Below are positions 7,170-28,246 of a stretch of 64,000 bases of DNA, piece after piece. Position numbers and translations under genes: made by a program. The stretch comes from an uncultured delta proteobacterium (GTDB taxonomy: Bacteria; Myxococcota; Myxococcia; Myxococcales; Myxococcaceae). Numbering within the stretch: the first letter of the stretch is position 1; each line of letters begins with the position of its first letter. The stretch lies in NCBI GenBank assembly GCA_963771175.1, contig CAVYSY010000032.1, positions 512,001 through 576,000 of the forward strand, written 5' to 3'. The notes under the pieces are model-generated. The model was not told the origin of the DNA and did no database searches. It was given only the letters and a program-made list of their open reading frames with translations.

Positions 7170-9581
7170 ATGAGCGACATTCAAGACCCGGAGCAGCCGG
7201 GAACCACTGCCGAAGCGTCGACCCGCCCCGCCGAGTACGTCGCGGATGTCAGCTTCGAAGACCTGAACCTCTCCGAGCCCCTGCGGCGTGCCATCGCCGA
7301 GCGCGGCTATACCCACCCTACCCCCGTCCAGGCCAAGGCCTTCGGCCCCGTCATGGCGGGCAAGGACCTCATCGTGCGCAGCAAGACCGGCACGGGCAAG
7401 ACGGCCGCCTTCGGCCTGCCCCTGCTGGAGAAGATTGCCGCCGAGGACAAGCGGGTGCGCGCCCTCATCCTCTGCCCCACGCGCGAGCTGGCGATCCAGG
7501 TGGCCGAGGAGCTGTCCTCCCTGGGCAAGCACAAGGGCGTGAAGGTGGCGGCCATCTACGGCGGCGCCTCCATGAAGCAGCAGGAGGACGCCCTGGAGGA
7601 GGGCACGCAAATCATCGTGGGCACGCCCGGCCGGGTGTTCGACCACATCAACCGCGGCAACCTCAAGCTCGAGGGCTGCACCCACGCGGTGCTGGATGAA
7701 GCCGACGAGATGCTCAACCAGGGCTTCTACGAGGAGGTCACCCGCATCCTCGACCGCCTCCCCAAGGACCGGCAGGTGCTGCTCTTCAGCGCCACCGTCC
7801 CCACGGACATCCAGAACCTGATCGCCCGCTACACCACCAACGCCGAGACGCTGCTGCTCTCCGGCGACGTCTTCACCGTCGAGCACATCCACCACATCCG
7901 CTACGACGTGTCGGACGCCTTCCCCAAGCCGCGCAACCTCATCTACGTGCTGGAGGCGGAGGAGCCGCAGAACGCCATCATCTTCTGCAACACCCGGGAT
8001 GACACGGCGCTGGTGACGGCGGTGCTCAACCGCAATGGCTTCGACGCGGACCTGCTCAACGGGGACCTGCCGCAGAAGGAGCGCGAGCGGGTGATGGGCA
8101 AGGTGAAGCGCGGCGAGGTGGCCTTCATGGTGGCCACGGACATCGCGGCGCGCGGCATCGACATCTCCGGCCTCGAGTACGTCATCAACTACTCGCTGCC
8201 CGAGGACCCGGCCGTGTACCTGCACCGGGTGGGCCGCACCGGCCGCATCGGCAACAAGGGCACCGCCATCAACCTCTTCTCCGGCCGCGAGCTGGCCACG
8301 TACACCGTGCTGGAGAAGAAGTACGGCATCAAGTTCGAGAAGCGCGAGATGCCCGCCCCCGAGGAGGCCATGCGCCTGTGGGCCGAGCGCCACGTGCGCG
8401 AAATCCGCGAGGCCGCCTCCGGCTCCATCTTCGAGGGCTTCCTCCCCCTGGCCACCCAGCTCAAGGGCCGGGCGGACGCGGATGACCTCATCGCCTTCCT
8501 GCTCAAGTACTTCTTCAGCCACCTGCGCATGGAGAAGGCCCTGGCCGCCGGGGAGACCGAGCGCACCGAGCCGCAGGAGCGCAAGCCCGAGAGCCGCCGC
8601 AAGGAAGGCGGCAGGGACCGGGAGCGCCCCCGCGAGAGGGAGCGCGAGCGGGAGAGGCCTCGGCGCGAGGAGCGTCGGGAGGTCCGTGGGGAGGCCGGCG
8701 AGCGGCGTGAGCGGGTCGAGCGGCCCCGCCGTGTCGAGCGCGAGCGCGGCCCCGGAGGGATGGAGGCCGGCCCCGGCGAGGTGAAGCTGTGGATCAACCT
8801 GGGCACCGAGGATGGCCTCGGGCCCGGCAGCATCGTCACCGCCCTGGAGGAGGCCGGCGCCCCCGCCAACAAGGTGGTGCGCGCCGACCTCAAGCCGGGC
8901 TTCGCCTACGTCTTCATCGCCCAGGAGGACCTGCCGGGCTTCGAGGCCCTCAACGGCAAGCAGTACAAGGACAAGGCGCTGAAGGTGGAGAAGAGCCGGC
9001 CGCGCGGCGAGCGCGACCCGAACCGGCCGCCGCCCTCGCCCGACGCCGGCCCCGGCGAGGTGAAGCTGAAGTTCAACCTGGGCACGGACGACGGCCTGGA
9101 CGACGCGAAGTTCGTCACCGCCCTGGAGGCCGCTGGCGCCCCCGCGGGCAAGGTGCTGAAGACGGTGCTGCGCCCCGGCTACGGCTACGCCTACGTGGCC
9201 GAGGCGGACGCCCCCGCCTTCGAGGGTCTCACCGGCAAGCAGCACGGCGAGAAGGTGCTCAAGGTGGATCGGCACCGGCCCCGCGGCTTCCGCGAGCGGC
9301 CGCCGCGCGCCGAGCGTCCCGAGCGCACCGAGACGCCCGAGGTGCCCGGCCAGGCGCGCCTGTGGGTGGGCCTCGGCCGCTCCGAGGGACTGGATGAGGC
9401 GGCCCTCACCGGCGCCCTGGAGACGCTGGGTGCCCCGGCGGGCAAGGTGCAGCGCGTGGAGCTCAAGCCCACCTACGCGTATGTCTTCGTCGCCGACGAG
9501 GACGTGGCCGGCTTCGAGGCCCTCAACGGCAAGCAGCACGGCGAGAAGACGCTGAAGATCGAGCGCGCTCGCCGCCGGTAG
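7170..9581 (+). CDS. deaD: DEAD-box RNA helicase (DeaD/CsdA-like) with three C-terminal DbpA-type RRM repeats
   Basis: Q motif, SKTGTGKT, PTRELA, DEAD, SAT, ARGID and HRVGRTGR motifs, followed by three repeated domains of about 75 aa. Confidence 0.9.
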   Translation: MSDIQDPEQPGTTAEASTRPAEYVADVSFEDLNLSEPLRRAIAERGYTHPTPVQAKAFGPVMAGKDLIVRSKTGTGKTAAFGLPLLEKIAAEDKRVRALILCPTRELAIQVAEELSSLGKHKGVKVAAIYGGASMKQQEDALEEGTQIIVGTPGRVFDHINRGNLKLEGCTHAVLDEADEMLNQGFYEEVTRILDRLPKDRQVLLFSATVPTDIQNLIARYTTNAETLLLSGDVFTVEHIHHIRYDVSDAFPKPRNLIYVLEAEEPQNAIIFCNTRDDTALVTAVLNRNGFDADLLNGDLPQKERERVMGKVKRGEVAFMVATDIAARGIDISGLEYVINYSLPEDPAVYLHRVGRTGRIGNKGTAINLFSGRELATYTVLEKKYGIKFEKREMPAPEEAMRLWAERHVREIREAASGSIFEGFLPLATQLKGRADADDLIAFLLKYFFSHLRMEKALAAGETERTEPQERKPESRRKEGGRDRERPRERERERERPRREERREVRGEAGERRERVERPRRVERERGPGGMEAGPGEVKLWINLGTEDGLGPGSIVTALEEAGAPANKVVRADLKPGFAYVFIAQEDLPGFEALNGKQYKDKALKVEKSRPRGERDPNRPPPSPDAGPGEVKLKFNLGTDDGLDDAKFVTALEAAGAPAGKVLKTVLRPGYGYAYVAEADAPAFEGLTGKQHGEKVLKVDRHRPRGFRERPPRAERPERTETPEVPGQARLWVGLGRSEGLDEAALTGALETLGAPAGKVQRVELKPTYAYVFVADEDVAGFEALNGKQHGEKTLKIERARRR

Positions 9582-9717
9582 TCGGCTCGCTCGGAGGGCG
9601 GGGTTGCGGCCCACACCGCCCCCGCCCCGAGCACCCCCCGGATGGCCTGGACTCGCCCCGCCGTGTCCGACGACCGCTCGCCGCAGGGAGGCACGGGCCA
9701 TACCTACACGCCACCGG

Positions 9718-9903
9718 CAGCACTGCCTCACCGGGCACCCAGAGAAGGCCCTGGAGTACTTCCTGCGGGCGGCCGAGACAGCGCTGATCGACCTGGAGTG
9801 GACCGACCGCTGCCCCGCGCTCGCGCCCCTGCGCGCGCTCCCGGGCTTCGCCGAGGGCCGACGTCAGGTGCGAGCCCGGGTGGCCGCCATCTGGAATGGG
9901 TAG
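9718..9903 (+). pseudogene. Orphan C-terminal fragment resembling the tail of myxobacterial kinase/TPR proteins
   Basis: EKALEYFLRAAETALIDLEWTDRCPALAPLRALPGFAE..RARVAAIW with no convincing start. The family resemblance is from recall only. Confidence 0.45.
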
Positions 9904-9917
9904 GCCTCGGGGGCGCG

Positions 9918-10646
9918 TCAGAAGTCCTCGCGAGCCTCGGCCAGGGTGTACTCCTTCCGGGCGCGGACGAGCGGCCCTGTCTTCTCCACCAGCCACGCGG
10001 GCGCGCCCTCCGGCAGGTAGAAGGACTCCTCGAAGGGCGACAGCCCCAGGTGGCGCAGGTACTCCTGGAGCATGTCGAAGGTGAACCGGTCCCTCACCCG
10101 GCGCGACTGGTACTGCTCCGGTTTCTCGAAGGAAAAGGGCTCACCGAACTGGTCGAAGGCCCAGCGGCCTCCGTCGTTGAGTGCGCTCACGGCGCGTATG
10201 CAGTTGAGCCAGGCCGTCTGGTGCGGGCCATACATGGCGAGCGCCACGGCACCATAGCGGCCCTTGTCGTTCCGGATGGTATTGGGCACGGCGACCACAC
10301 GCAGGCACCGGCAGCCCAGCGTCCGAGCCATGTAGCGCATGGGGCCGGCGGCATCGGTCCCCCGCCAGCCGTTCTCGACGTACGCCGTCCAGGGGCCGCG
10401 GGTCGGGATGAAGAGATGCCGCTGCGTTTCGGAATCCGTGAGGGGCAACAGGGCGGAGAGAGCCTGTTCCAGGGAGCCCGTCACCGGGCGAACCTCGACG
10501 GCGACACCATCGGGCGCCAGCAGCCCTGCTTGCCACGCCGCGTAGGCGCGAGCGGCATGCTCCGCATCGGTCTCCAGAAATCCCATCTCCGAAGTGACGG
10601 GCGCCCAGCGGTCGTCCAGGAGCAGTCCCTTCATGTTCTCGGTCAT
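9918..10646 (-). CDS. Putative immunity protein (SitI-like)
   Basis: 242-aa aromatic-rich soluble ORF starting 17 bp downstream of the lipoprotein toxin gene. Confidence 0.6.
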   Translation of the reverse strand: MTENMKGLLLDDRWAPVTSEMGFLETDAEHAARAYAAWQAGLLAPDGVAVEVRPVTGSLEQALSALLPLTDSETQRHLFIPTRGPWTAYVENGWRGTDAAGPMRYMARTLGCRCLRVVAVPNTIRNDKGRYGAVALAMYGPHQTAWLNCIRAVSALNDGGRWAFDQFGEPFSFEKPEQYQSRRVRDRFTFDMLQEYLRHLGLSPFEESFYLPEGAPAWLVEKTGPLVRARKEYTLAEAREDF

Positions 10647-10663
10647 CCGCTGAGCCTCGCCCC

Positions 10664-11938
10664 TCAGGGCACGATGAGGAGGATGGTTTCCGCATCCGGG
10701 TCGTTGGATGTGGTGCGCGACTGGTGGCCGGGACCACGGCCCGACGTGGGCGCGTCATACTCCACCTGATAGCGGCGGCCTTTATAGTCGAACTGCAGGT
10801 CCGGGCGGTTGACCCCGACGCGCTGGCCGTTGCGATACGTGAGTTGCTGCTGGTTCACCCGGATGTTCGTGGCGCCTATGTCATCCAGGTATTGGATGTC
10901 CGCCTGAAGCTGCGCGTTCTGCGTGGGGCTGGAGCCAATGGGACGGCTCACCTCTCGTGCGCCGGGCACCTTCGGCTTGACCGCGATATCCTGAGGCAGG
11001 CGTGGGCCAGGAATCACTGGCCGTGTCGGGTTGTTGCCAGCGAGCGCCTGGACCAATCCTGGCGATGGCGCGGGTGAGGCCGACGCGGGAGCGGGCGCTA
11101 CTGGCGCGGGAGCGGGTTCGAGAGGGGGTGCGGCGGATCGCGACACCGGCCGTCGCGGCGCCGGAGCATTCCCCCCGAGTCCCTCCTCCCGAGAAAACGG
11201 ACGAAGTGCTGGCGCCGAGCCCACCCGCACCACGCGCGAGAAGACTCCCTGCAGGACCTTGGTCCCCGTCAGGGTCAACAACAGGACCTTCAGCTCGCGC
11301 TGGACCGTCTCCGCCAGTTGCGTCCGAACCTCGAGCATCGCCCGGGCAATGCGAGGCGTGGTGGCCGGAGAGAAGAGGGTGGGCACGATGAGCGCGCCTC
11401 CCGCGCCCCTGTAATAGGCATACCTCGAGGGGCTCGACCCGGGGACATTGGCCGCCGTGTCCACCAGGGCCGTATCCCGGTCCGGGTAGATGGATGCACT
11501 CAGCGGTTCCGCGCTCTCGAGTCCCAGGTCCACATGAGACTCCGGGACAAGCACGGGCTGCGGCAGCCCCTCACAGTAGAGAAGATACCCTCCTGCGGTG
11601 AGGACAAAGCCCACGGCGGTCACACGGACATCGACGAAGTCCCGATGCGCTCGGGGGTCAGCCAGCCCTTGAGAGGCCCGAGGCAACTGGACGCCGCTCT
11701 GGCGCAGTTCCGCTGCCCGCCGTGGCGTGGGGGCCTCGAAATCGACGTCGACGGCCTGCTGCCCGAAACCTGCCGTATCCCGGTAGTGCTGAGCCGCGAC
11801 AGGGCTGTTCTGCGCGTACCACGCAGGCCCCACCAGGTCGGGCTTCGCTGCACATCCCGCGAGAAACAACAGGAGCGCAAGCCCACTCAACCCACGGAGC
11901 CACCACCCCCTGGAATGGCAATACGTCACGAGGCGCAT
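10664..11938 (-). CDS. Lipoprotein polymorphic toxin (SitA-like) with C-terminal PD-(D/E)xK-like nuclease domain
   Basis: Lipobox LLLFLAGC, Pro/Ala linker, and C-terminal NRPDLQF..YQVEYD. Confidence 0.7.
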   Translation of the reverse strand: MRLVTYCHSRGWWLRGLSGLALLLFLAGCAAKPDLVGPAWYAQNSPVAAQHYRDTAGFGQQAVDVDFEAPTPRRAAELRQSGVQLPRASQGLADPRAHRDFVDVRVTAVGFVLTAGGYLLYCEGLPQPVLVPESHVDLGLESAEPLSASIYPDRDTALVDTAANVPGSSPSRYAYYRGAGGALIVPTLFSPATTPRIARAMLEVRTQLAETVQRELKVLLLTLTGTKVLQGVFSRVVRVGSAPALRPFSREEGLGGNAPAPRRPVSRSAAPPLEPAPAPVAPAPASASPAPSPGLVQALAGNNPTRPVIPGPRLPQDIAVKPKVPGAREVSRPIGSSPTQNAQLQADIQYLDDIGATNIRVNQQQLTYRNGQRVGVNRPDLQFDYKGRRYQVEYDAPTSGRGPGHQSRTTSNDPDAETILLIVP

Positions 11939-12187
11939 GAATCCCTTCCCGTTCGAGGCGAGTGCTCAGGGTCCACGGGGAGCCCTACGAAGCAACGATG
12001 CAGAACCCACGTGGAACCCTGAAGGACGCGAGAGGTAGATGGCAGCGGGCTCGCCCGGCACCGATGACGCAGCGCACCACCCACATGACACGGGACCAGA
12101 GAAGCGCGCCCTGGATTCATCAAGCCATCGTCGAATTCGTCAAAGATGACGCTTGCGCTGGGCCGTCTTGCTGGTTACCTAGGGTCC

Positions 12188-15100
12188 ATGCCCACGCCCC
12201 CCAGACTCTTCGGCGAAGCCCTCCGCGCAGCTGCGGCTCCCTGGCGCGAGGAGCTCGGCAAATCCGACCGGGACCGGCTCGATGCCTTGCTCGGCCTCGC
12301 CGTCAGGGAGCACATCCCTCTGTCCGACTGTCTCGCGGCGCTCTTCCCGGGCACGGAGACACGGAAGGCCCAGACCGCCCTGACCTCCTTCCGCAAGCGG
12401 CTCAACGATGCCGCGAAGGGAGAGGGCCGCGCCGACCTCGGTCTTCGCTTCCAGGTGGACACCAAGAAGCAGAACCCCCCCACCGAACGCCTCTGCTGGT
12501 TCACCGGACCCGATCCCGCCGTGATGAAGGCGGAGCAGGTCTCCGACCAGCTCACAGCCGATGTCCAAGGCATGCCCTTCGTCCCGTCCCGAGGGATCAC
12601 CACCACCGGGAATGCGATGGCCTCGGGAAAGCGGGTCATCCGCTTCTTCGTCTCCTACGCCCACGACAACAGGCAGCTCGCCGAGGCGCTCGTGAAGGAC
12701 CTGGGCACCCATTTCGCCGCATCCGCCCGCTACGCGCTCATCCCCTGGATGGACCGTGACATCCTGGTGGGTGAGCGCTGGAAGGAGAGCATCGAAGAGG
12801 CCATCAAGGACTGCGACTTCGGCCTCATGCTGCTCAGCCCGGCCTTCTTCGCGAGCAGATTCATCAAGGCGCACGAGCTGCCCCGGTTCGTGGGCGCTCC
12901 GGACAATCCCAGACTCAAGCCCGTCCTGCCCGTGGGATTGGTGCCGATCACGTTCGGCAGGCACGATCTCCAGGGGCTTGAAGAGCACCAGATCTTCCGA
13001 TTCCAAAACGAGCGGCTCGAGGGGCGCTACTACGATCAGATGCCGGCTGGCGCCCGGAGGCGCGAGTTCGTCCGCCAGCTCCACCTCGCCATCGAGAAGC
13101 GCCTCGACGCTTTTTTTTTGACTCCCCCTCCCGGCACGCCCCCCTCCCCTCCCAGGCCCGAGGCACGCACTCCTGACCTCCTCGCCGACCATGTCCCGGT
13201 TCCGGAGGAGACCCCCAACCACCAGCGCAACAAGGGCCTCCCGCTCGCCCTGGTGGACCTGGAGCGGCTCGACACCGGAGGACTCGACCTCGCGGAGCAC
13301 GTCCAGGCGCGCGACGCGCTCGACGAGCTCGAGTCCTGGGCCACCAACTCCGCCGCTCCGCCATTCTTCGCGCTGCTCGGGGAATATGGCATTGGCAAGA
13401 CCACCACCCTGAAGCAGCTCACCCGTCACCTGCTGGAGGAACGCAAGTCCAGACCGGAGCTGCCGCTCCCCATCTACGTGGACCTCCGCGCCTACGTCGG
13501 CGAGACCCGGGACAGCGTTCCCACCATCGAGCAGCTCCTCGCCCGTGTGATGGAGCGGAGCTGGAAGCTGCGGGACCGCAACATCACCCCCCAGGACGTT
13601 CTGCGCCTCGTCCGGGAGGAGGGCGCGCTCATCCTCTTCGATGGTCTGGACGAGAAGATCGTCCACCTCCAGCCCGACCGCGCCCGTGACTTCATCCGCA
13701 CGCTCTGGGCCGTCCTCCCTGATGCCGCACGAAGCGAGGACCCCCTGCCGCCCGGGAAGCGCCGGGGCAAGTTCCTCATCTCCTGCCGCTCTCATTACTT
13801 CCGCGACGTGTTGAGTCAGAACTCGATGCTCGTCGGCGAGGATCGCGAGGGCTTCGAGCGCAACCAGTTTCCCGCCCTCTGCCTCCTGCCATTCACCGAG
13901 GAGCAGATCCGGAGCTATCTGACTTCGCTCCTCGGAGACGCGGAGCGTGGGGCGGAGGCGTTCGAAGTCATTGCCTCCATCCACAATCTCCGGGAGCTCG
14001 CGCAACGGCCCTACCTGCTCACCCTCATCAGCGGCCGCCTCGGAGAGCTGGAGACGCTCCAGGCCCAGGGCGAACAGGTGAATGCCGCGCGGCTGTACGA
14101 ACTCGTCGTCCGCTCCTGGCTCAACCGCGACGACGGGAAGCACCAGCTCGACCCCGTGCACAAGAGCCGCATCATGGAGGACCTCGCCGCCGCGCTCTGG
14201 CGTGACGGCAGCAAGCAGTGGGACGTGGAGCGCCTCGAGGCATGGTTCGACGAGTATCTCGCCGGGAACCCCGCGCTCGCCGCGGCCTACGCGAACAAGG
14301 ACCGCGCCGTCCTCAAGGAGGATCTCCGCACCGCCACCTTCGTGCTGCGGCCCACCACGGAGGAGAAGCACTTCCGCTTCGCCCATACCTCCCTGCAGGA
14401 ATACTTCCTCGCCGCCCACCTCAAGCGCGCGCTGGTCGAGGGACAGGTGGCGCGCTGGGACCTGCCGAGGGTCTCCCGGGAGACGCTGGACTTCCTCGGG
14501 CAGCTCCTGGCCCTCGAGCCCCGGCCCGAGGCCCTGCGCTCGCTGGAGGCCATTCTGGGCGGCGAGTGCCTCGCCGCGGCCGTGCTCGCGTTCGCCTACT
14601 GGCTGCGCGCCCTCGAGCAGGGGCACCCGGTGCCCGCCCCGCAAGCGAGTGAAGCTCGCCGGGGCGGACCTGGAAGAATGGCACCTGCGCGGCCGCGGCC
14701 CCGCGCAGCCGCTGAACCTGCGCGGGGCCGACCTTTCCGGCGTGCGAGCTCAATCGCGCCGGGTCGAGCACGTGAACCTCGCCGATGCCGATCTCACCGC
14801 GCTACAGGCGAGGCAGGCGCTGTTCTTGAAGGTGAGCGCGCCGCGAGCGCGAGCACGGAATGCCGATTTCCGCGGGCTGCGGTGGCGGGAGGGCTCGCTG
14901 TTGGGCGCGGAGCTCCGCGGAGCACAGCTCGCGGGTTGTCAGTTCATCCGGGTGGACCTCGCCGGGGCGAGCCTGCCGGAGGGATGGGAGCGCCACGCCA
15001 CCGTCGTGGAGGAACGCCGAAGCGCTCCCCCTCCTCGAATGGGTACGCCGTCCCTGGCGGTGCTCCTCGGTCACGCCAACTACGGTGAGGGCGTGCGCGT

Positions 15101-17014
15101 GGAGTCCAGACGGCCAGCGCCTCCTGTCTGGCTCTTCCGACAAGTCCCTGCGGGTGTGGGACGCCGCGTCCGGCGACTGCCTTCTCACCCTCTCCGGCCA
15201 TGCCTCCCCGGTGACGGCGTGCGCGTGGAGTCCGGACGGCCAGCGCCTCCTGTCTGGCTCTGACGACCACTCCCTGAGGGTGTGGGACGCCACGTCCGGC
15301 GACTGCCTTCTCACCCTCTCCGGCCATGCCTCCTCGGTGAATGCGTGCGCGTGGAGTCCGGACGGCCAGCGCCTCCTGTCGGGCTCTTCCGACCACTCCC
15401 TGCAGGGTGTGGGACGCCACGTCCGGCGACATGCCTTCTCACCCTCTCCGGCCATGCCTCCTCGGTGAGGGCGTGCGCGTGGAGTCCGGACGGCCAGCGC
15501 CTCCTGTCGGGCTCTTCCGACAACTCCCTGCGGGTGTGGGACGCCGCGTCCGGCGACTGCCTTCTCACCCTCTCCGGCCATGCCTCCTCGGTGACGGCGT
15601 GCGCGTGGAGTCCGGACGGCCAGCGCCTCCTGTCGGGCTCTTCCGACAACTCCCTGAGGGTGTGGGACGCCGCGTCCGGCGACTGCCTTCTCACCCTCTC
15701 CGGCCATGCCTCCTCGGTGTTGGCGTGCGCGTGGAGTCCGGACGGCCGGCGCCTCCTGTCGGGCTCTTTCGACCACTCCCTGAAGGTGTGGGACGCCACG
15801 TCCGGCGACTGCCTGCTCACCCTCTCGGGCCATGCCTCCCATGCCTCCCCGGTGACGGCGTGCGCGTGGAGTCCGGACGGCCGGCGCCTCCTGTCGGGCT
15901 CTTTCGACAACTCCCTGAGGGTGTGGGACGCCGCGTCCGGCGACTGCCTTCTCACCCTCTCCGGCCATGCCTCCCATGCCCCCCGGTGACGGCATGCGCG
16001 TGGAGTCCGGACGGCCAGCGCCTCCTGTCTGGCTCTGACGACAGCTCCCTGAGGGTGTGGGACGCCGCGTCCGGCGACTGCCTTCTCACCCTCTCCGGCC
16101 ATGCCTCCTCGGTATTGGCGTGCGCGTGGAGTCCGGACGGCCAGCGCCTCCTGTCTGGCTCTGCCGACAGCTCCCTGAGGGTGTGGGACGCCACGTCCGG
16201 CGACTGCCTTCTCACCCTCTCCGGCCATGCCTCCTGGGTGAATGCGTGCGCGTGGAGTCCGGACGGCCAGCGCCTCCTGTCTGGCTCTGACGACAGCTCC
16301 CTGCAGGTGTGGGACGCCGCGTCCGGCGACTGCCTTCTCACCCTCTCCGGCCATGCCGATTCGGTGTGGGCGTGCGCATGGAGTCCGGACGGCCAGCGCC
16401 TCCTGTCTGGCTCTTCCGACCACTCCCTGCGGGTGTGGGACGCCGCGTCCGGCGACTGCCTTCTCACCCTCTCCGGCCATGCCTCCCCGGTGACGGCATG
16501 CGCGTGGAGTCCGGACAGCCAGCGCCTCCTGTCTGGCTCTGACGACAGCTCCCTGCGGGTGTGGGACGCCGCGTCCGGCGACTGCCTTCTCACCCTCTCC
16601 GGCCATGCCGATTCGGTGTGGGCGTGCGCGTGGAGTCCGGACGGCCGGCGCCTCCTGTCTGGCTCTTCCGACAGCTCCCTGAGGGGGTGGGACGCCACGT
16701 CCGGCGACTGCCTTCTCACCCTCTCCGGCCATGCCTCCTGGGTGAATGCGTGCGCGTGGAGTCCGGACGGCCAGCGCCTCCTGTCTGGCTCTTCCGACCA
16801 CTCCCTGAGGGTGTGGGACGCATCCTCGGGCCAATGCGTCTGGTCCAGCCATCTCTTCCCGGAGGGGCAAATCGCGTCAATCGACGAGGTTCACGGACGC
16901 GTCCTCCATGCATCCCCCGAAGCCTGGCGCTGGCTGGGCTGGCGCTGGAACGACCCCGCCACTGGCCAGCTTCGTATCCTCCCCGCTGAATCCCTTGGCC
17001 CACTCCCCGCTTGA
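12188..17014 (+). CDS. NLR-like STAND protein: wHTH-like N-terminus, TIR, NACHT, pentapeptide repeats, 14 WD40 repeats (frameshifts near 14640, 15080, 15405-15430 and 15985)
   Basis: TIR FFVSYAH..WMDRDI..LLSPAFFAS..HEL, Walker A GEYGIGKTT, Walker B LILFDGLDE, FAHTSLQEYF, LRGADL repeats and GH..WD repeats. Confidence 0.85.
15069..16850 (+). repeat. 14 tandem 126-bp WD40-coding repeats with very high internal identity
   Basis: Unit heads GGCCATGCC recur at 126-bp spacing (about 15450, 15576, 15702, 15828, then 16097, 16223, 16349, 16475, 16601, 16727). Two units carry a 9-bp CATGCCTCC duplication. Confidence 0.95.
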
Positions 17015-17083: not shown

Positions 17084-17119
17084 CCCCTCACCCCGACCCT
17101 CTCCCGGACGGAGAGGGAG
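17084..17119. repeat. REP-like palindromic element
   Basis: CCCCTCACCCCGACCCTCTCCCGGACGGAGAGGGAG, with stem CCCTCTCC/GGAGAGGG, overlapping the XRE gene stop codon. Confidence 0.6.
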
Positions 17120-17612
17120 GGGTTTGCGGGGTTTTCGCTCTCCTCGCCCGGTGGTAGTGCGCCACGCACAGCTCCTTGGCCAGCACCGGCTTCCCACAGC
17201 CCGGCTCCTTGCAGCGGGGAGCCTCCTCGGGGCGGCGCCTGTCCGGTGGCTCCCGCTGGCCGAACATCGCCTCCGCCACCGCCAGCAGCCGATCCACCTC
17301 GGCCCGTCCCAGCCCGCGCGCGCGCACGAACTCCACCAGCCGGTGCGCCCCCGCCGCCTCGTCCTCCTCCACCCGGAAGAGCTCCGCCAGGGGCACGCCC
17401 AGCGCCGCCGCCACCTGAACGAGCGTCTCGTAGCTGGGGCTGCGCTCGCCCCGCTCCAGCAGCGACGCGAAGCTCACCGAGATGCCACACCGGGCGGCGA
17501 AGTCCTCCTGGGTCAGCCCCCGCCGCTCGCGCAGGGTGCGGATGCGGCGCGCGAGCCCCTGCAGGTGCCCGCTCGCATCCTGGGCTGACGGGGAACTGGA
17601 GCGCATCGCCAA
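17088..17612 (-). CDS. XRE-family HTH regulator with C-terminal Cys/His zinc finger
   Basis: RIRTLRERRGLTQEDFAARCGISVSFASLLERGERSPS, and CKEPGC..LCVAHY. Confidence 0.85.
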   Translation of the reverse strand: MAMRSSSPSAQDASGHLQGLARRIRTLRERRGLTQEDFAARCGISVSFASLLERGERSPSYETLVQVAAALGVPLAELFRVEEDEAAGAHRLVEFVRARGLGRAEVDRLLAVAEAMFGQREPPDRRRPEEAPRCKEPGCGKPVLAKELCVAHYHRARRAKTPQTPPSPSGRGSG

Positions 17613-17697
17613 CCCATGTTAGCGCACCCCTTCTGTTAAGGTCTCGCGCCGTCGCAGGTCCCCCGCGCGAGGGACGCCCCAGGAGAGCACCCCGGCC

Positions 17698-22994: not shown

Positions 22995-25900
22995 ATGTCG
23001 GACACGCGTGCGGCGATGAGGGAGTTTCGCTTCCTGGATGAGAAGCGGACGCGGGGAATCCTTTCCCCCGCGGAGGAAGCTCGTTGGAGCGAGCTACAGG
23101 GGCTCCTGGCTACCCAGGGTGTGCCCACGCAGGAGTCCGCCGAGGCCATGGACCCCGCGCAGCAGCCCCAGGGCTACTACGGCGCCGATGGTCAGTGGTA
23201 CGCCTACCCCGCCGACTACTCCCAGTCCGGCTACGCCGCGCAGGGCTACGATCCCCACCAGGGCTACGCGCAGCAGCCCCAGGGCTACTACGGCGCCGAT
23301 GGCCAGTGGTACGCCTACCCCGCCCAGGGCGAGGGCGGCTACGACCCCAACCAGGGCTACGCGCAGCAGCCCCAGGGCTACTACGGTGCCGATGGCCAGT
23401 GGTACGCCTACCCCGCCCGGCGAGGGCGGCTACGACCCCAACCAGGCCTACGATCCCAACCAGGCCTACGCGCAGCAGCCCCAGGGCTACTACGGCGCCG
23501 ATGGCCAGTGGTACGCCTACCCCGCCCAGGGCGGCTACGACCCCAACCAGGCCTACGATCCCAACCAGGCCTACGCGGCCACGCAGGGTCAGCCCTACGC
23601 CGATCCGCAGCAGGCCTACGCGGCCGGCTACGCCGAGCAGCAGCCCTACCCGCAGACGACCACGGACGTGCCGCAGCCGGCACAGGAGCCGACCCCGCTC
23701 AGCCTCGAGAACGAGAACCTCGACATCCCCGCGCTGAACGGACCCGCGCCCTGGGCAGAGCCCACGCCGGAGCCCGCCGCGCCCGTCGACGAGGCCCAGC
23801 CCGAGTTCGAAGCCCAGCCCGAGTTCGAAGCCCAGCCCGAGTTCGAAGCCCAGCCCGAGTTCGAGGCCCAGCCCGAGTTCGAAGCCCAGCCCGAGTTCGA
23901 GGCCCAGTCCGAGCTCGAGGCCGAGCCCCTCGACACGGCCGAGCCCGTCGCCGAGGACGTCTTCGAGGTCTCCGACACCGACGTCACACCCGTCAGCGAG
24001 GCCACGCCGATCCCCGAGCGGCTCGAGGAGCCCGAGTCCGTCGACATGACCGGCTGGGAGGACCCCACTCCCGCGCAGGCCGAGTCCCCGGCGGATCTGC
24101 CGATGTTCGAGGCCTCGCCCGAGCCAGAGCCCTCGTCGCCCATCGAACTGGGCGAGGACGACTTCTCCGCACTCAACTCCGACCTGGGGGCTCCCGCTCC
24201 CGCGTCCGCACCGCCCGTGGTCGAGGAGGAGCCCACGACTCCGGTCCGGACCATCGAGGTGCAACCCACCGACATCGAGCTGCTCGAGGGCGCCGTCGAA
24301 GAGCAGCTCACGCCCGAGCCGGTGCTCGCCGAGGAGCCCACCGCTCCCGTCGCCAACGAGTGGGACTCCGCGCCGCTCGCGGTGGACATGGAGTCGAGCA
24401 CCGCCGCGACCCCACCGCCGCATGCCGACGCCGAGACCTCGGAAGTCGCCCTGCTCGATCAGAGCCGGATGGAGATCACCGCGTCGTACGCGCTCCCCGC
24501 GTATCCGACGGGTGACGTCGCCCTGCTCGAAATGGATGTCACGGCGCCTTCCGCCCGGCCCCTGCCTCCCCTGGAGGAGACCGAAGCGGTCGACGAGACA
24601 CCCACGTTCGACGTCTCCGAGCTCGAGGCCACGCCCGAGCTGGAGCCAGCCCCCACGCTGGACATGCCGTGGCAGACCGACGCCGACACGGCGGCGCTCG
24701 ATGCGAGCCCCGCCCTGGAGTCCGCACCGCACGCCGAGCCCAGCCGCGGAGGAGCCCACCTTCGACGTGGCCGACCTCGGTGCCGAGATGGAGCCGACGC
24801 CCGCCCCGGCTTTCGCGGCCCAGGAACACCCGACCACGCTGGAACTGCACCCGGTGCAGGTCGCGCCCGATCTCCAGGCGGACACGATCGAGCTCGCCGA
24901 CACGTACGAGCCCGGGGCCGTGCAGCCCGAGCACAACACCCTGACCTGGGGCAGCAACGAGGTCGTGCCCTCGGGCGAGCAGCCGTTCGACCTGACCGGG
25001 GACTCGGGCGAGCCCGTGCCGCTCGTCAACGCGAACGAGTTCCTGGGCCACGCCGATGAGGCCGGGACGTCCGTGTCCTCCGAGCCCGTCCCGCTCGAGA
25101 CGGCGGATGCCGACGCGAGCTGGAGCGGAAACGAGGGCTCTGGAGAGAGCCTCCAACTCGAGAGCGCCGCGGAGTACATGAGCACTCCGGAGTTCACCTC
25201 CGCCAGCGCCACCTGGGGACACCAGCCGGGGAGCGAAGAGCTCACGGCGGAGACGAACGCCACGCCCGAGAGCACCACGGCGTACGGCGACAGCCAGAGC
25301 GCGGATGCCGAGCTGCCCTCCATCGAGGCCCAGCCCGAGTGGAGCGCGTCGGCCGAGGAGCCGGCGCCCATCGAGGTCCAGGCGGAGTGGACCTCCACCG
25401 AGCCCGCTACCGTAGAGCCATCCGCCGAGGGCCAGACCGACTGGTCCGCACCGGTCGATGAGCAGCCCGTCCTCGAGGCTCAGCCCGAGTGGAGCGCATC
25501 GACCGAGGAGGCGGCGCCCATCGAGGTCCAGGGCGAGTGGTCCACACCGGCCGAGGAGCAGCCTGTTGCCGAGGCTCAGCCCGAGTGGGCCACTCCCGCC
25601 GAGGGCCAGACCGATTGGTCCGCACCGGTCGAGGAGCAGCCCGTCCTCGAGGCTCAGCCCGAGTGGAGCGCATCGACCGAGGAGGCAGCGCCCATCGAGG
25701 TCCAGGGCGAGTGGTCCACACCGGCCGAGGAGCAGCCCGTTGCCGAGGCCCAGCCCGAGTGGGCCACTCCCGCCGAGGAGCAGCCTGTCCTCGAGGCACA
25801 GGCCGAGTGGTCCACACCGGCCGAGGAGCAGCCCGTCCTCGAGGCTCAGGCCGAGTGGGCCACTCCCGCCGAGGAGCAGCCTGTTGCCGAGGCTCAGACC

Positions 25901-28246
25901 GAGTGGGCCACTCCCACCGAGGGACAGACCGACTGGTCCGCACCGGTCGAGGAGCAGCCCGTCCTCGAGGCTCAGCCCGAGTGGGCCACTCCCGTCGAGG
26001 AGCAGCCCGTTGCCGAGGCCCAGCCGGAGTGGGCCACTCCCGCCGAGGAGCAGCCTGTTGCCGAGGCTCAGCCCGAGTGGGCCACTCCCGCCGAGGGCCA
26101 GACCGACTGGTCCGCACCGGTCGAGGAGCAGCCCGTCCTCGAGGCTCAGCCCGAGTGGGCTTCTCCCGCCGAGGAGCAGCCTGCTGTTGAGGCCCAGTCC
26201 GAGTGGGCCACTCCCGCCGAGGGCCAGACCGACTGGTCCGCTCCCGCCGAGGAGCAGCCTGTCCTCGAGGCGCAGACTGAGTGGGCCACTCCCGCCGAGG
26301 AGCAGCCTGCTGTTGAGGCGCAGCCAGAGTGGGCCACTCCCGCTGAGGTCCAGGGCGAGTGGTCCACACCGGCCGAGGAGCAGCCCGTCCTCGAGGCTCA
26401 GGCCGAGTGGACCACTCCCGCCGAGGAGCAGCCTGTTGCCGAGGCTCAGGCCGAGTGGACCACTCCCGCCGAGGGACAGACCGACTGGTCCGCACCGGTC
26501 GAGGAGCAGCCCATCCTCGAGGCTCAGCCCGAGTGGAGCGCATCGACCGAGGAGGCAGCGCCCATCGAGGTCCAGGGCGAGTGGTCCACACCGGCCGAGG
26601 AGCAGCCTGTTGCCGAGGTCCAGCCCGAGTGGGCCACTCCCGCCGAGGAGCAGCCTGTCCTCGAGGCACAGCCCGAGTGGACCACTCCCGCCGAGGAGCA
26701 GCCCGTTGCCGCGGCCCAGCCCGAGTGGGCCACTCCCGCCGAGGAGCAGCCTGTCCTCGAGGCTCAGCCCGAGTGGGCCACTCCCGCCGAGGAGCAGCCC
26801 GTCCTCGAGGCTCAGCCCGAGTGGGCCTCTCCCGCCGAGGAGCAGCCTGCTGTTGAGGCCCAGTCCGAGTGGGCCACTCCCGCCGAGGGACAGACCGACT
26901 GGTCCGCTCCCGCCGAGCAGCCCGTTGCCGAGGCCCAGCCCGAGTGGGCCGCTCCCGTCGAGGAGCAGCCCGTTGCCGAGGCCCAGCCCGAGTGGGCCTC
27001 TCCCGCCGAGGGGCAGACCGACTGGTCCGCTCCCGCCGAGCAGCAGCCCTGGATGGCCGCCGCCGAGCCGTCGGCCCCCGTCGAGCTCCAGCCCGAGTGG
27101 GCGTCCGAGAGCTCCACGCAGGACTGGAACGCCGCTCCGGCAGCTGAGCCCCAGACGGACTGGAACGCTCCCGCCGAGGCCCAGCCCGAGTGGAACGCGC
27201 CCGTCGAGGAGGTGCAGCCCGAGTGGGCCAGCGCGCCCGCGGAGACGAATTGGAACGCGCCCACCGAGAGCCAGGGTGAGTGGAACGCGACGGCCCAAGA
27301 CGCCGAGCCGCCCCTGAGCCCCGATACGAACGCGTCCCTGTTCGGCACGAGTCCGACCTGGTCGGCCGAGGAGTCGGAGGCCGGTGCGCAGGAGCAGTGG
27401 TCCGGCCAGCAGCAGGCGCCGGCGTGGGGTCAGGGCGACGGCGCGTACGGCACGCCCGTCGAGGAGCTCTCGGGCTCCGAGCAGACTCCCGAGGCCGACC
27501 TCCCGGTCATGGAGGCCGAGCCCGAGATGCCCGAGATCGACCTGGGCGAGCCCGAGGCCGACCTCCCGGTCATGGAGGCCGAGCCCGAGATGCCCGAGAT
27601 CGATCTCTCGGAGGACATCGTGGAGTCGCCCCCCGTGGCGGCTCCGGTGGCCCCCGCGCCGGTGGCCAGGACCGCGGCCCCCGCGATGCCTCCGCGGGCT
27701 CCCTCGGTCCCGGCGATGCCCCCGCCCCCGCCCATGGCGCCTCCGGCTCCCGTGGCGGCTCCGAGGGCGGCACTCGTGCCTGGGGCGCCTCCGCCTCGGT
27801 CCACGCTCCAAGCCATCCCGACGGTGCAGGCCTCGGCACAGTCGGCGTCCGCCGTGCCCATGGCCCCCATCAACGCCTTCATCGAGGGCGAGCACCGGGT
27901 CATCATCCACACGGTGGAGGGCCAGGTGAAGCGCGGTGCCATCCGCGACGTGGACCTGCTCGACGAGGCCATCCCGCTCGAGCAGCAGACCGGCTTCGCC
28001 CCCGAGCACATCCCGGTCACGCGCGTGAAGGCCATCTTCTTCATGCTCGCCACCGGCAGCCGTCCGCCGCAGCCGGAGGGGCAGAAGATCCGCGTCACCT
28101 TCAATGACGGTCGCCAGGTGGCCGGCTTCTCCCACGACTACAAGAACACCGGGCAGGGCTTCTTCGTCATCCCCGCGGACACGCGCACCAACACCTCGCG
28201 CATCTTCATCTACCGCGCGAGCGTGCAGGCCGTCGCCGAGGGCTGA
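22995..28246 (+). CDS. Giant acidic tandem-repeat protein with C-terminal DUF6982-like domain (frameshifts near 23418 and 24745)
   Basis: Continuous coding signal across three ORFs. Folded ends are MREFRFLDEKR.. and EGEHRVIIHTVEGQVKRG..RIFIYR. Confidence 0.8.
23160..23575 (+). repeat. Four QQPQGYYGADGQWYAYP repeats with YDPNQ spacers
   Basis: Direct repeats visible in both DNA and protein. Confidence 0.9.
23791..23916 (+). repeat. 18-bp VNTR encoding EAQPEF x6 plus one degenerate copy
   Basis: GA(G/A)GCCCAGCCCGAGTTC in tandem. Confidence 0.92.
25320..27295 (+). repeat. Mosaic coding array of EEQPV(L/A)EAQPEWATPA (48 bp) and EGQTDWSAP units
   Basis: Dozens of Trp-anchored acidic units. Confidence 0.92.

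Follow-up and report, generated by a model that had tools for sequence, protein, structure and literature searches.

A Myxobacterial Gene for a Putative NLR-Like TIR-NACHT-WD40 Receptor and the Probable Origin of Its Frame Breaks

Introduction

Does a coding sequence that is scattered over three reading frames in a genome assembly still encode one protein in the cell and, if so, what would that protein do? The question is raised by a locus in a 64,000-nucleotide stretch of DNA from an uncultured delta proteobacterium (hereafter the window; assembly GCA_963771175.1, contig CAVYSY010000032.1, positions 512,001 to 576,000 of the forward strand). By three-frame translation, positions 12188-17014 on the forward strand of the window hold one coding region spread over three frames, for which an earlier note, made from the sequence alone, had proposed a single gene of about 1600 codons once the insertions and deletions (indels) are bridged. 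Here, we report that all of the elements named in that proposal, which are an N-terminal region, a TIR domain, a NACHT NTPase, pentapeptide repeats and 14 WD40 units, are found by Pfam searches in one polypeptide, and we regard the architecture of a TIR effector, a NACHT module and a 14-unit WD40 sensor in a single chain as virtually certain. It is also highly likely that the gene is intact in vivo. Judged from its sequence, it appears to belong to the bacterial NLR-related NACHT proteins, whose effector-NACHT-propeller kind is already known, as a handsome but unremarkable example, in a host that looks like an Archangium-like myxobacterium.

Architecture of the Gene

Pfam searches of the frame pieces give the order NNH6, TIR, NACHT, pentapeptide repeats and 14 WD40 units; a conserved tail follows. 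The features are listed below with their positions in the window; residue numbers, here and throughout, count from an ATG at 12146, and 14 is subtracted to count from the ATG at 12188.

12188..17014, forward strand: whole gene, ending in a TGA stop at 17012-17014 (ORFs, three-frame translation, Pfam, orthologue alignment)
12218..12538, forward strand: NNH6, NACHT N-terminal helical domain 6 (Pfam PF22737, residues 25-131, E 2.8e-22)
12644..13120, forward strand: TIR domain (Pfam TIR_2 core at 12644-12946, residues 167-267, E 1.1e-12)
12875..12877, forward strand: codon GAG of Glu244, the Glu of FIKAHELP (alignment to BtTir)
13314..14638, forward strand: NACHT NTPase module with its helical/winged-helix continuation (Pfam PF05729, residues 409-512, E 1.3e-7)
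13379-13405, forward strand: Walker A motif GEYGIGKTT (Lys418)
13640-13654, forward strand: Walker B/DGLDE motif (FDGLDE)
14650..15000, forward strand: pentapeptide-repeat segment (Pfam PF00805, E 7.8e-10, in 14634-15092)
15067..16849, forward strand: 14 WD40 units of 126 bp (Pfam, Tandem Repeats Finder, unit alignment)
16850..17011, forward strand: conserved C-terminal tail of about 54 residues (homologue consensus, orthologue L004)

No single frame stays open through the whole gene, and the open reading frames (ORFs) to be joined are the overlapping pieces 12146-15088, 14082-15263 and 15341-17014 of the forward strand. The reading path runs in frame 2 from 12146 to about 14640, in frame 0 to about 15084 and in frame 1 to about 15402, then in frame 2 for about ten codons, in frame 0 to about 15980 and in frame 2 to the TGA. 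The ATG at 12188 appears to be the better start and the one at 12146 the less likely alternative, because aligned homologues keep the Met at 12188, which is also where the gene call deposited as P0003 (966 amino acids) begins. From this ATG the corrected gene counts 1607 codons, or 1601 without two three-codon duplications. Its G+C content (0.692) is close to that of the genome (0.694; about 69% in the window), and composition therefore gives no signal of transfer.

A word-indexed protein search returned 72 relatives of similar length and 53 longer ones, 24 of which measure 1585-1605 amino acids; the corrected length is therefore the canonical size of the family. In 16 of the 53, exactly 546 residues (13 x 42) separate the start of the first recognised WD unit from that of the last, a simple pattern recovers all 14 units in six of the 53, and 7 of the 12 related loci examined carry intact ORFs of 1586-1639 amino acids.

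The TIR Domain and Its Putative Catalytic Glutamate

The earlier claim of a TIR domain with a Glu at the expected catalytic position, within FIKAHELP, is borne out by the agreement of fold model, Foldseek search and alignment. The AlphaFold2 (AF2) model (predicted local distance difference test score, pLDDT, 89.8; predicted template modelling score, pTM, 0.83) extends beyond the Pfam core to a last helix ending near residue 325. Its Foldseek matches, headed by RPPT-TIR (E 5.7e-4), are nearly all plant, animal and bacterial TIR domains, the last including BtpA, BtTir, PdTIR and AbTir; the few other rows are flavin reductases and similar folds.

In a phmmer alignment of E 0.0086, on which the residue mapping depends, residues 239-245 match the W-T-E-Y-E-L stretch of PDB entry 7uxr, so paired that Glu244 stands opposite the second Glu of the BtTir stretch W-T-E-Y-E. 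According to the accessible part of a preprint, 7UXR is BtTir, the active-site residues of AbTir are W204, T205 and E208, and the variant E208A is inactive (bioRxiv 10.1101/2022.05.07.491051). Since the BtTir alignment matches the W204/T205/E208 spacing of AbTir, Glu244 aligns with the catalytic position of the TIR NADases. An aromatic residue precedes this Glu by four or five positions. Glu is kept at 244 in 49 of 63 homologues, six more having a gap there, and in alignment A2 it is present in at least 90% of 49 homologues. The TIR fold and the Glu at the catalytic position are thus common to this domain and to the TIR NADases AbTir, BtTir, SARM1 and the TIRs of plant TNLs, from which it differs by low sequence similarity (best PDB E 0.0086; 11-25% identity among the Foldseek matches).

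The NACHT Module and the Pentapeptide Segment

The linker between TIR and NACHT has no Pfam match. The NACHT module scores 32.0 bits against a Pfam cut-off of 26.7, and the NTPase proposed earlier is upheld by Walker A and Walker B motifs that are intact here and near-invariant in the family, each being at least 90% conserved in 49 homologues; a phmmer search of the NACHT part against PDB sequences gave no match at E up to 0.1. We take FRFAHTSLQEYF to be the conserved His-containing motif of NACHT winged-helix domains. NCBIfam models gave only sub-threshold matches over the gene, to TIR, propeller and pentapeptide families, and the pentapeptide segment is matched by them only below their cut-offs.

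The WD40 Array and the C-Terminal Tail

The 14 WD40 units are found by Pfam in three frame pieces (3 + 4 + 7), and Tandem Repeats Finder describes 15083-16821 as 13.7 copies of a 126-bp period with 91% matches; the mean DNA identity of units 2-13 is 92.9%. Counting from the Ser before Gly-His, 26 of the 42 positions per unit are invariant across the 14 units and eight others vary synonymously only, while positions 6, 8, 24 and 26 are hypervariable (entropy 1.7-2.2 bits, 4-5 residue types each) and show no synonymous codon variants. In 12 similar-length and 43 longer homologues as well, within-protein entropy tops at positions 24, 6, 8, 26 and 5, and each homologue keeps its own uniform repeat backbone. 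A uniform backbone with a few varied sites is the signature of concerted evolution with diversification at few sites. By a hotspot rule for WD40 proteins that Wu and colleagues reportedly formulated in 2012, positions 6, 8, 24 and 26 would presumably lie on the top face, near strand a and at the turn between strands b and c.

The 14 units are expected to form two 7-bladed propellers. The closest solved structure of the WD part, 2YMU (E 3.4e-142), is Npun_R6612 of Nostoc punctiforme, which likewise has 14 repeats in two propellers, as stated in the accessible part of Hu et al. (2017, PMC5587647); the entry covers a WD40 region only and is uninformative on the TIR/NACHT part or the ligand. The same part of that study describes, for highly repetitive prokaryotic WD40 proteins, repeat diversity concentrated at predicted hotspot sites, and the available text of Dyrka et al. 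describes bacterial NLRs that, like fungal ones, have WD repeats with 80-90% internal identity. The uniform units with few variable sites are, thus, real but already described for bacterial NLRs, and not new.

The same features agree with the likeness drawn earlier to the layout of the fungal HNWD proteins (HET-E, HET-D and HET-R of Podospora), in which a NACHT domain is followed by WD40 units of very high internal identity with few hypervariable positions, which presumably contact the ligand, and the predicted sensor is, as here, a double propeller. The fungal proteins differ in their effector, HET there and TIR here (the Pfam matches here are to NNH6 and TIR, none to HET), and in their variable unit number, which is apparently fixed at 14 in the bacterial family; moreover, this genome has no second locus that shares the repeat DNA, and no polymorphic partner is known here. 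Exchange of WD units between paralogues was considered and rejected: in the 82%-complete assembly, blastn with three WD units found no other copy of the repeat DNA and tblastn with the NNH6, TIR and NACHT pieces found no paralogue, only the gene itself being recovered.

The tail that follows the array has no Pfam match at E up to 1. Its consensus across the family (P0004-P0127) reads Pro-Glu-Ala-Trp-Arg...Leu-Gly-Trp, then ...Leu-Pro-Ala-Glu.Phe-Gly-Pro, and it could close the propeller or serve as an autoinhibitory peptide.

The N-Terminal NNH6 Domain

The segment LFPGTETRKAQTALTSFRKRL, which the earlier note had likened to a DNA-binding, possibly autoregulatory winged helix, falls inside NNH6, a domain of the NNH class that is named for bacterial NACHT proteins in the available part of one preprint (bioRxiv 10.1101/2022.07.19.500537). 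In the AF2 model of the domain, which is of moderate confidence (pLDDT 71.7), two helices are followed by a short strand, a third helix, a long helix and a beta hairpin. Its best Foldseek match (E 0.12) is not significant, and the best VIA-align match reaches Z 6.2 (root-mean-square deviation 3.2 over 65 residues), the caution line of the tool being Z 8. A winged-helix-like fold is nevertheless plausible for the model, because winged-helix domains make up most of both lists (MarR, ArsR/SmtB, OmpR/CadC, Mga, TFIIE, ORC/Cdc6, kleisin and plant NRG1). The weak fold likeness, at scores below significance, is what stands of the earlier idea; nothing supports DNA binding or autoregulation, and many of the structural neighbours are protein-binding winged helices (STAND/AAA+, kleisin), not DNA binders. 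NNH6 would then be an N-terminal accessory domain, for which protein contact or regulation seems to us a more likely role than DNA binding.

Distribution and Variation of the Family

In a locus scan of one genome per species, 93 loci among 395 pattern matches encode relatives, and 80 were retained. Among the matches listed, these occur, besides other lineages, in Archangium, Hyalangium, Cystobacter, Pyxidicoccus and Enhygromyxa and, beyond Myxococcota, in Prosthecobacter and other Verrucomicrobiota, in Planctomycetota, Acidobacteriota and Chloroflexota and in Thiothrix; their sources label them only as "TIR domain-containing", "WD40 repeat" or "pentapeptide repeat" proteins. Two relatives, P0109 and P0127, match the NACHT-to-WD40 part only and carry a nucleoside phosphorylase annotation (PF01048) in place of the TIR, which by sequence looks like the exchange of one effector for another on a common sensor chassis, as is typical of NLR-like families. 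The gene is patchily distributed in its genus and behaves as an accessory gene, near-full-length orthologues being present in 3 of the 17 other genomes searched.

Proposed Mechanism and Its Alternatives

On balance, the parts described above suggest a single-polypeptide, NLR-like STAND receptor that would cleave NAD+ on activation and act by abortive infection. In the proposed mechanism, the double WD40 propeller, with contact residues varied at four positions per unit, would bind a protein that is foreign or altered self, perhaps with the help of the pentapeptide beta-helix and the conserved tail. Ligand binding would release the NACHT module for nucleotide exchange and oligomerisation, oligomerisation would join the N-terminal TIRs into composite active sites around Glu244 that cleave NAD+, and the loss of NAD+ would arrest or kill the infected cell. 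The steps of ligand sensing, oligomerisation, NADase activity, cell death and anti-phage defence are those that we infer from known systems, and for a phage as the trigger we see roughly even chances.

The known systems are of several kinds. The bacterial NACHT (bNACHT) proteins of Kibby et al. have the same tripartite order of N-terminal effector, NACHT and C-terminal repeat sensor; the accessible part of that work names NNH domains and TIR effectors among their components, along with pentapeptide repeats and beta-propellers, and reports that several members protect Escherichia coli from phage (bioRxiv 10.1101/2022.07.19.500537). They differ in that NNH6 here precedes the TIR rather than adjoining the NACHT, and the subfamily NNH6-TIR-NACHT-pentapeptide-14 WD40-tail is not among the tested members found in the text available. 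The Avs families are, as here, single-gene STAND sensors with an N-terminal effector, and they recognise phage proteins; their sensors are mostly TPR-like, and no PADLOC Avs model matched here. WD40 sensors are mentioned among defence-associated STANDs in the available portion of another article (PMC12803255). Plant TNLs likewise join a TIR to a STAND NTPase and to a repeat sensor, these being NB-ARC and LRR there and NACHT and WD40 here.

Several observations weigh against a defence receptor of this kind. Glu244 is replaced in 8 of 63 homologues (four Asp, three Ala, one Ser). The neighbours in the window are housekeeping genes, for a sigma-70 factor, a DEAD-box/DbpA helicase, a glutamate dehydrogenase and a PALP/ACT enzyme, and in a PADLOC scan (E up to 1e-8) of 93 flanking ORFs from eight related loci, out of 142 ORFs called in 12, further TIR genes stand next door in one locus only. 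Defence-like neighbours being confined to one locus, the gene does not typically lie in a recognisable defence island; it is a solitary accessory cassette outside any obvious one. On the gene itself, PADLOC gave no NLR or Avs match at E up to 0.01, only weak TIR (best 1.5e-6) and weak P-loop matches; its models represent tested enterobacterial members, and the miss therefore does not bear on the superfamily assignment. Finally, the accessible literature that was searched yielded no experiment on the NNH6-TIR-NACHT-pentapeptide-14 WD40 family.

One alternative, which we consider unlikely, is that the TIR makes a signalling nucleotide, such as an isomer of cyclic ADP-ribose (cADPR), for an unlinked effector, or only scaffolds assembly, with no killing by NAD+ depletion. 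AbTir and BtTir do make cADPR isomers, according to the available part of the preprint on these bacterial TIR domains (bioRxiv 10.1101/2022.05.07.491051); the position of AbTir W204, reported as informative for cyclase activity, holds Phe or Tyr here; and the eight homologues that have lost Glu244 point the same way. However, no conserved neighbour gene stands ready to read such a signal, the flanks of the orthologues differing from one another and sharing no similarity with the window outside 12057-17014. Furthermore, a different nucleotide-cleaving enzyme takes the place of the TIR in relatives, as would suit an effector that is self-contained.

With a similarly small probability, the same receptor could serve programmed death with a trigger other than phage, either conspecific non-self, as in kin discrimination, or a developmental or stress cue, by analogy with HET-E and HET-D. 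The sensor is designed as in fungal HNWD proteins, with uniform WD units and hypervariable positions, the host genus is a social myxobacterium and seven of the eight loci scanned offer no defence-island context; yet the family is equally found in non-social lineages (Prosthecobacter, Planctomycetota, Acidobacteriota, Thiothrix), the number of units stays at 14 instead of varying, and no polymorphic partner gene is linked. A still more specific version, to which we give slightly less credence, would make the family a bacterial counterpart of the fungal allorecognition NLRs, with a private recognition surface for each lineage and possibly each strain, which in social myxobacteria could follow phage proteins and a polymorphic protein of conspecifics, and with a winged-helix-like NNH6 gating the TIR; concerted evolution would keep the units uniform while four contact residues per blade were re-assorted on a fixed 14-blade propeller.

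Origin of the Frame Breaks

In the assembly, seven single-base indels break the frame, giving five net frame changes clustered in 14641-15980. Outside the WD40 array they were placed by alignment to the orthologues at loci L002, L003 and L004, and inside it by unit-to-unit alignment, as follows:

14641, forward strand: first break of the frame, one extra base (+1) that L002, L003 and L004 lack
14747..14759, forward strand: one base too many at 14747 and one too few at 14759 (orthologue alignment)
15084, forward strand: extra base (+1), second net frame break (orthologue alignment)
15403..15431, forward strand: two extra bases, 15403 C and 15431 A, in WD unit 3 (unit-to-unit alignment)
15830..15838, forward strand: in-frame 9-base duplication in WD unit 7, adding His-Ala-Ser after Gly-His-Ala-Ser (unit-to-unit alignment)
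15973..15980, forward strand: 8-base insertion in WD unit 8, last frame break (unit-to-unit alignment)

The 14747/14759 pair shifts the frame only locally, changing four residues, and the insertion at 15973-15980 is a copy of the 15830-15838 duplication minus one base, beside a run of C.

These breaks are very probably assembly errors, since marker genes of the same assembly are split, orthologues read through, contigs from public sequencing runs lack the indels and the ratio of nonsynonymous to synonymous substitution (dN/dS) is not raised; the earlier suspicion that the indels are artefacts is therefore well supported. The assembly has 9.83 Mb in 58 contigs at a completeness of 81.66%, and its marker genes were checked at the following places:

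G000:C25:92475-100856, G000:C2:35015-37483 and G000:C33:218341-220132: split genes rpoB, rpoC, secA and a second gyrB-like gene (marker-gene check)

In particular, rpoB lies in three frame pieces (two frame changes), rpoC in four (three changes), secA in seven (six changes in about 2.5 kb) and the second gyrB-like gene in four, while uvrA and one gyrB are whole, from which it follows that the errors are patchy and locally as dense as here, and that any "pseudogene" in this assembly needs checking. A plot of G+C at third codon positions (GC3) by frame was also tried on the window; it proved too noisy for counting frameshifts, and the marker-gene test was used instead.

The three orthologues, from the same genus, are 84%, 78% and 77% identical in protein to the window (L002, L003 and L004, respectively), and none of them has any of the four indels that lie outside the repeat array. 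NACHT, pentapeptide and WD40 regions read in one frame in L003 and L004, and L004 has a complete open frame of 1131 residues that ends in the same C-terminal tail. Its array of only about 2.5 units has evidently collapsed, as expected of a short-read assembly; orthologue arrays show 2-5 WD units against 14 in intact relatives. For HNWD arrays, the accessible parts of two sources report the same, short-read assemblies collapsing them and long-read ones showing single-base errors (PMC12222747; bioRxiv 10.1101/2020.01.06.895854). Downstream of the first break, dN/dS between window and orthologues is 0.25-0.30, compared with 0.29 between two intact orthologues, and the orthologue-guided reading frame of the window contains no stop.

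Contigs of public runs were aligned to 13400-15200, X3 and X4 covering short parts only. The extra base at 14641 is absent from all covering contigs (depth 18.1/18.1 in run X1 and 9.79/9.79 in X2), the indels at 14747/8 and 14758/9 are missing from every covering contig of X1, X2 and X3, and all covering contigs of X1 and X2 omit one base at 15081, which corresponds to the break at 15084.

Three points count against this explanation. The contigs without the indels are 95-99.5% identical to the window and so represent close strains, the same strain not being proven; the contig comparison spans the four sites outside the array, the three breaks inside it resting on unit alignment; and the density of indels here (7 in 1.35 kb) exceeds that in the intact-looking neighbouring genes. 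The first and the last of these would favour a true pseudogene in this strain, with seven real mutations and no full-length protein, as would the clustering of the five net frame changes next to about 11 kb of neighbouring genes with long unbroken ORFs. We consider a pseudogene improbable: essential genes of the assembly are broken as densely or more, in-frame stops are lacking and dN/dS does not rise after the first break, the WD units remain uniform and vary at the usual positions only, and the four testable indels are missing from every covering contig in three runs. That two genes are present, one for a TIR-NACHT protein (12188-15088, as deposited) and one for a WD40 protein (15341-17014), as the 966-residue gene call and the separately listed ORFs might suggest, is scarcely credible, given that the final 150 or so residues of that call are the pentapeptide region translated out of frame and that the orthologues, like over 20 relatives, each form one ORF of about 1600 amino acids.

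Two further observations concern frame and length. The neighbouring WD units 7 and 8 both carry the 9-base duplication, whereas the units of relatives are strictly 42 residues long; the duplication may be genuine and recent, having passed between units by conversion, or it may be artefactual. In two of the 12 related loci, L026 (Cystobacter fuscus NCWS contig_1) and L032, ORF calling picked out no long central ORF despite a tblastn match to the TIR part, and the gene may be frame-broken there too.

Genomic Neighbourhood

Directly upstream of the gene, about 2.5 kb at 9600-12100 hold long ORFs on both strands with a weak, frame-switching codon-position signal, and could be frameshifted genes or non-coding DNA. 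The ORFs at 9.6-12.1 kb have no Pfam match at E up to 1, which leaves neither an integrase nor a transposase to be called next to the gene. A promoter scan of 11800-12300 gave no sigma-70-like site; myxobacterial promoters may not conform to that consensus. At the other end, a gene for an XRE-type HTH_3 protein (17091-17618, reverse strand) is convergent with the receptor gene, whose 3' end is 77 bp away, and lies outside the segment shared with the orthologues, which ends at 17014. Farther downstream, a 1398-residue ORF at 24050-28243 (forward strand) has DUF6982 as its sole Pfam match, at its C-terminal end (E 5.1e-28).

Among the related loci scanned with PADLOC, flanking matches are to generic protein kinases in L020 and L027 and to candidate families in L024 and L031. 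In L028, from a metagenome-assembled genome of Limnocylindria, the relative is flanked by two TIR genes, one of them ThsB-like (E 5.7e-24), and by a PDC-M50A candidate:

7403-9454 (forward strand), 14046-15449 (reverse strand) and 15415-15897 (reverse strand) of L028: defence-like neighbours (PADLOC)

Five loci of Prosthecobacter and other Verrucomicrobiaceae (L027, L032, L035, L039 and L040) have a same-strand ORF of about 600-630 residues immediately upstream of the gene, and all of them except L040 also have a same-strand ORF of about 1000 residues 3 kb downstream. PADLOC, run on L027 and L040, matched neither the upstream ORF nor the 1000-residue ORF of L027, and these flanking ORFs may reflect lineage synteny or a conserved partner.

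Significance

In practice, the locus carries a warning for genome annotation, as noisy long-read assemblies make such genes resemble pseudogenes while short-read ones collapse the array, here to 2-5 units instead of 14. No ligand of a bacterial WD40-type NLR sensor is named in the accessible parts of the literature found. If the proposed mechanism is true, the roughly four varied residues per blade on a constant scaffold would make this family tractable both for the retargeting of WD40 double propellers and for questions about the ligand, and the myxobacterial gene would embody, in compact single-gene form, the effector-NOD-repeat logic that is common to plant TNLs, animal NLRs and fungal HNWD proteins.

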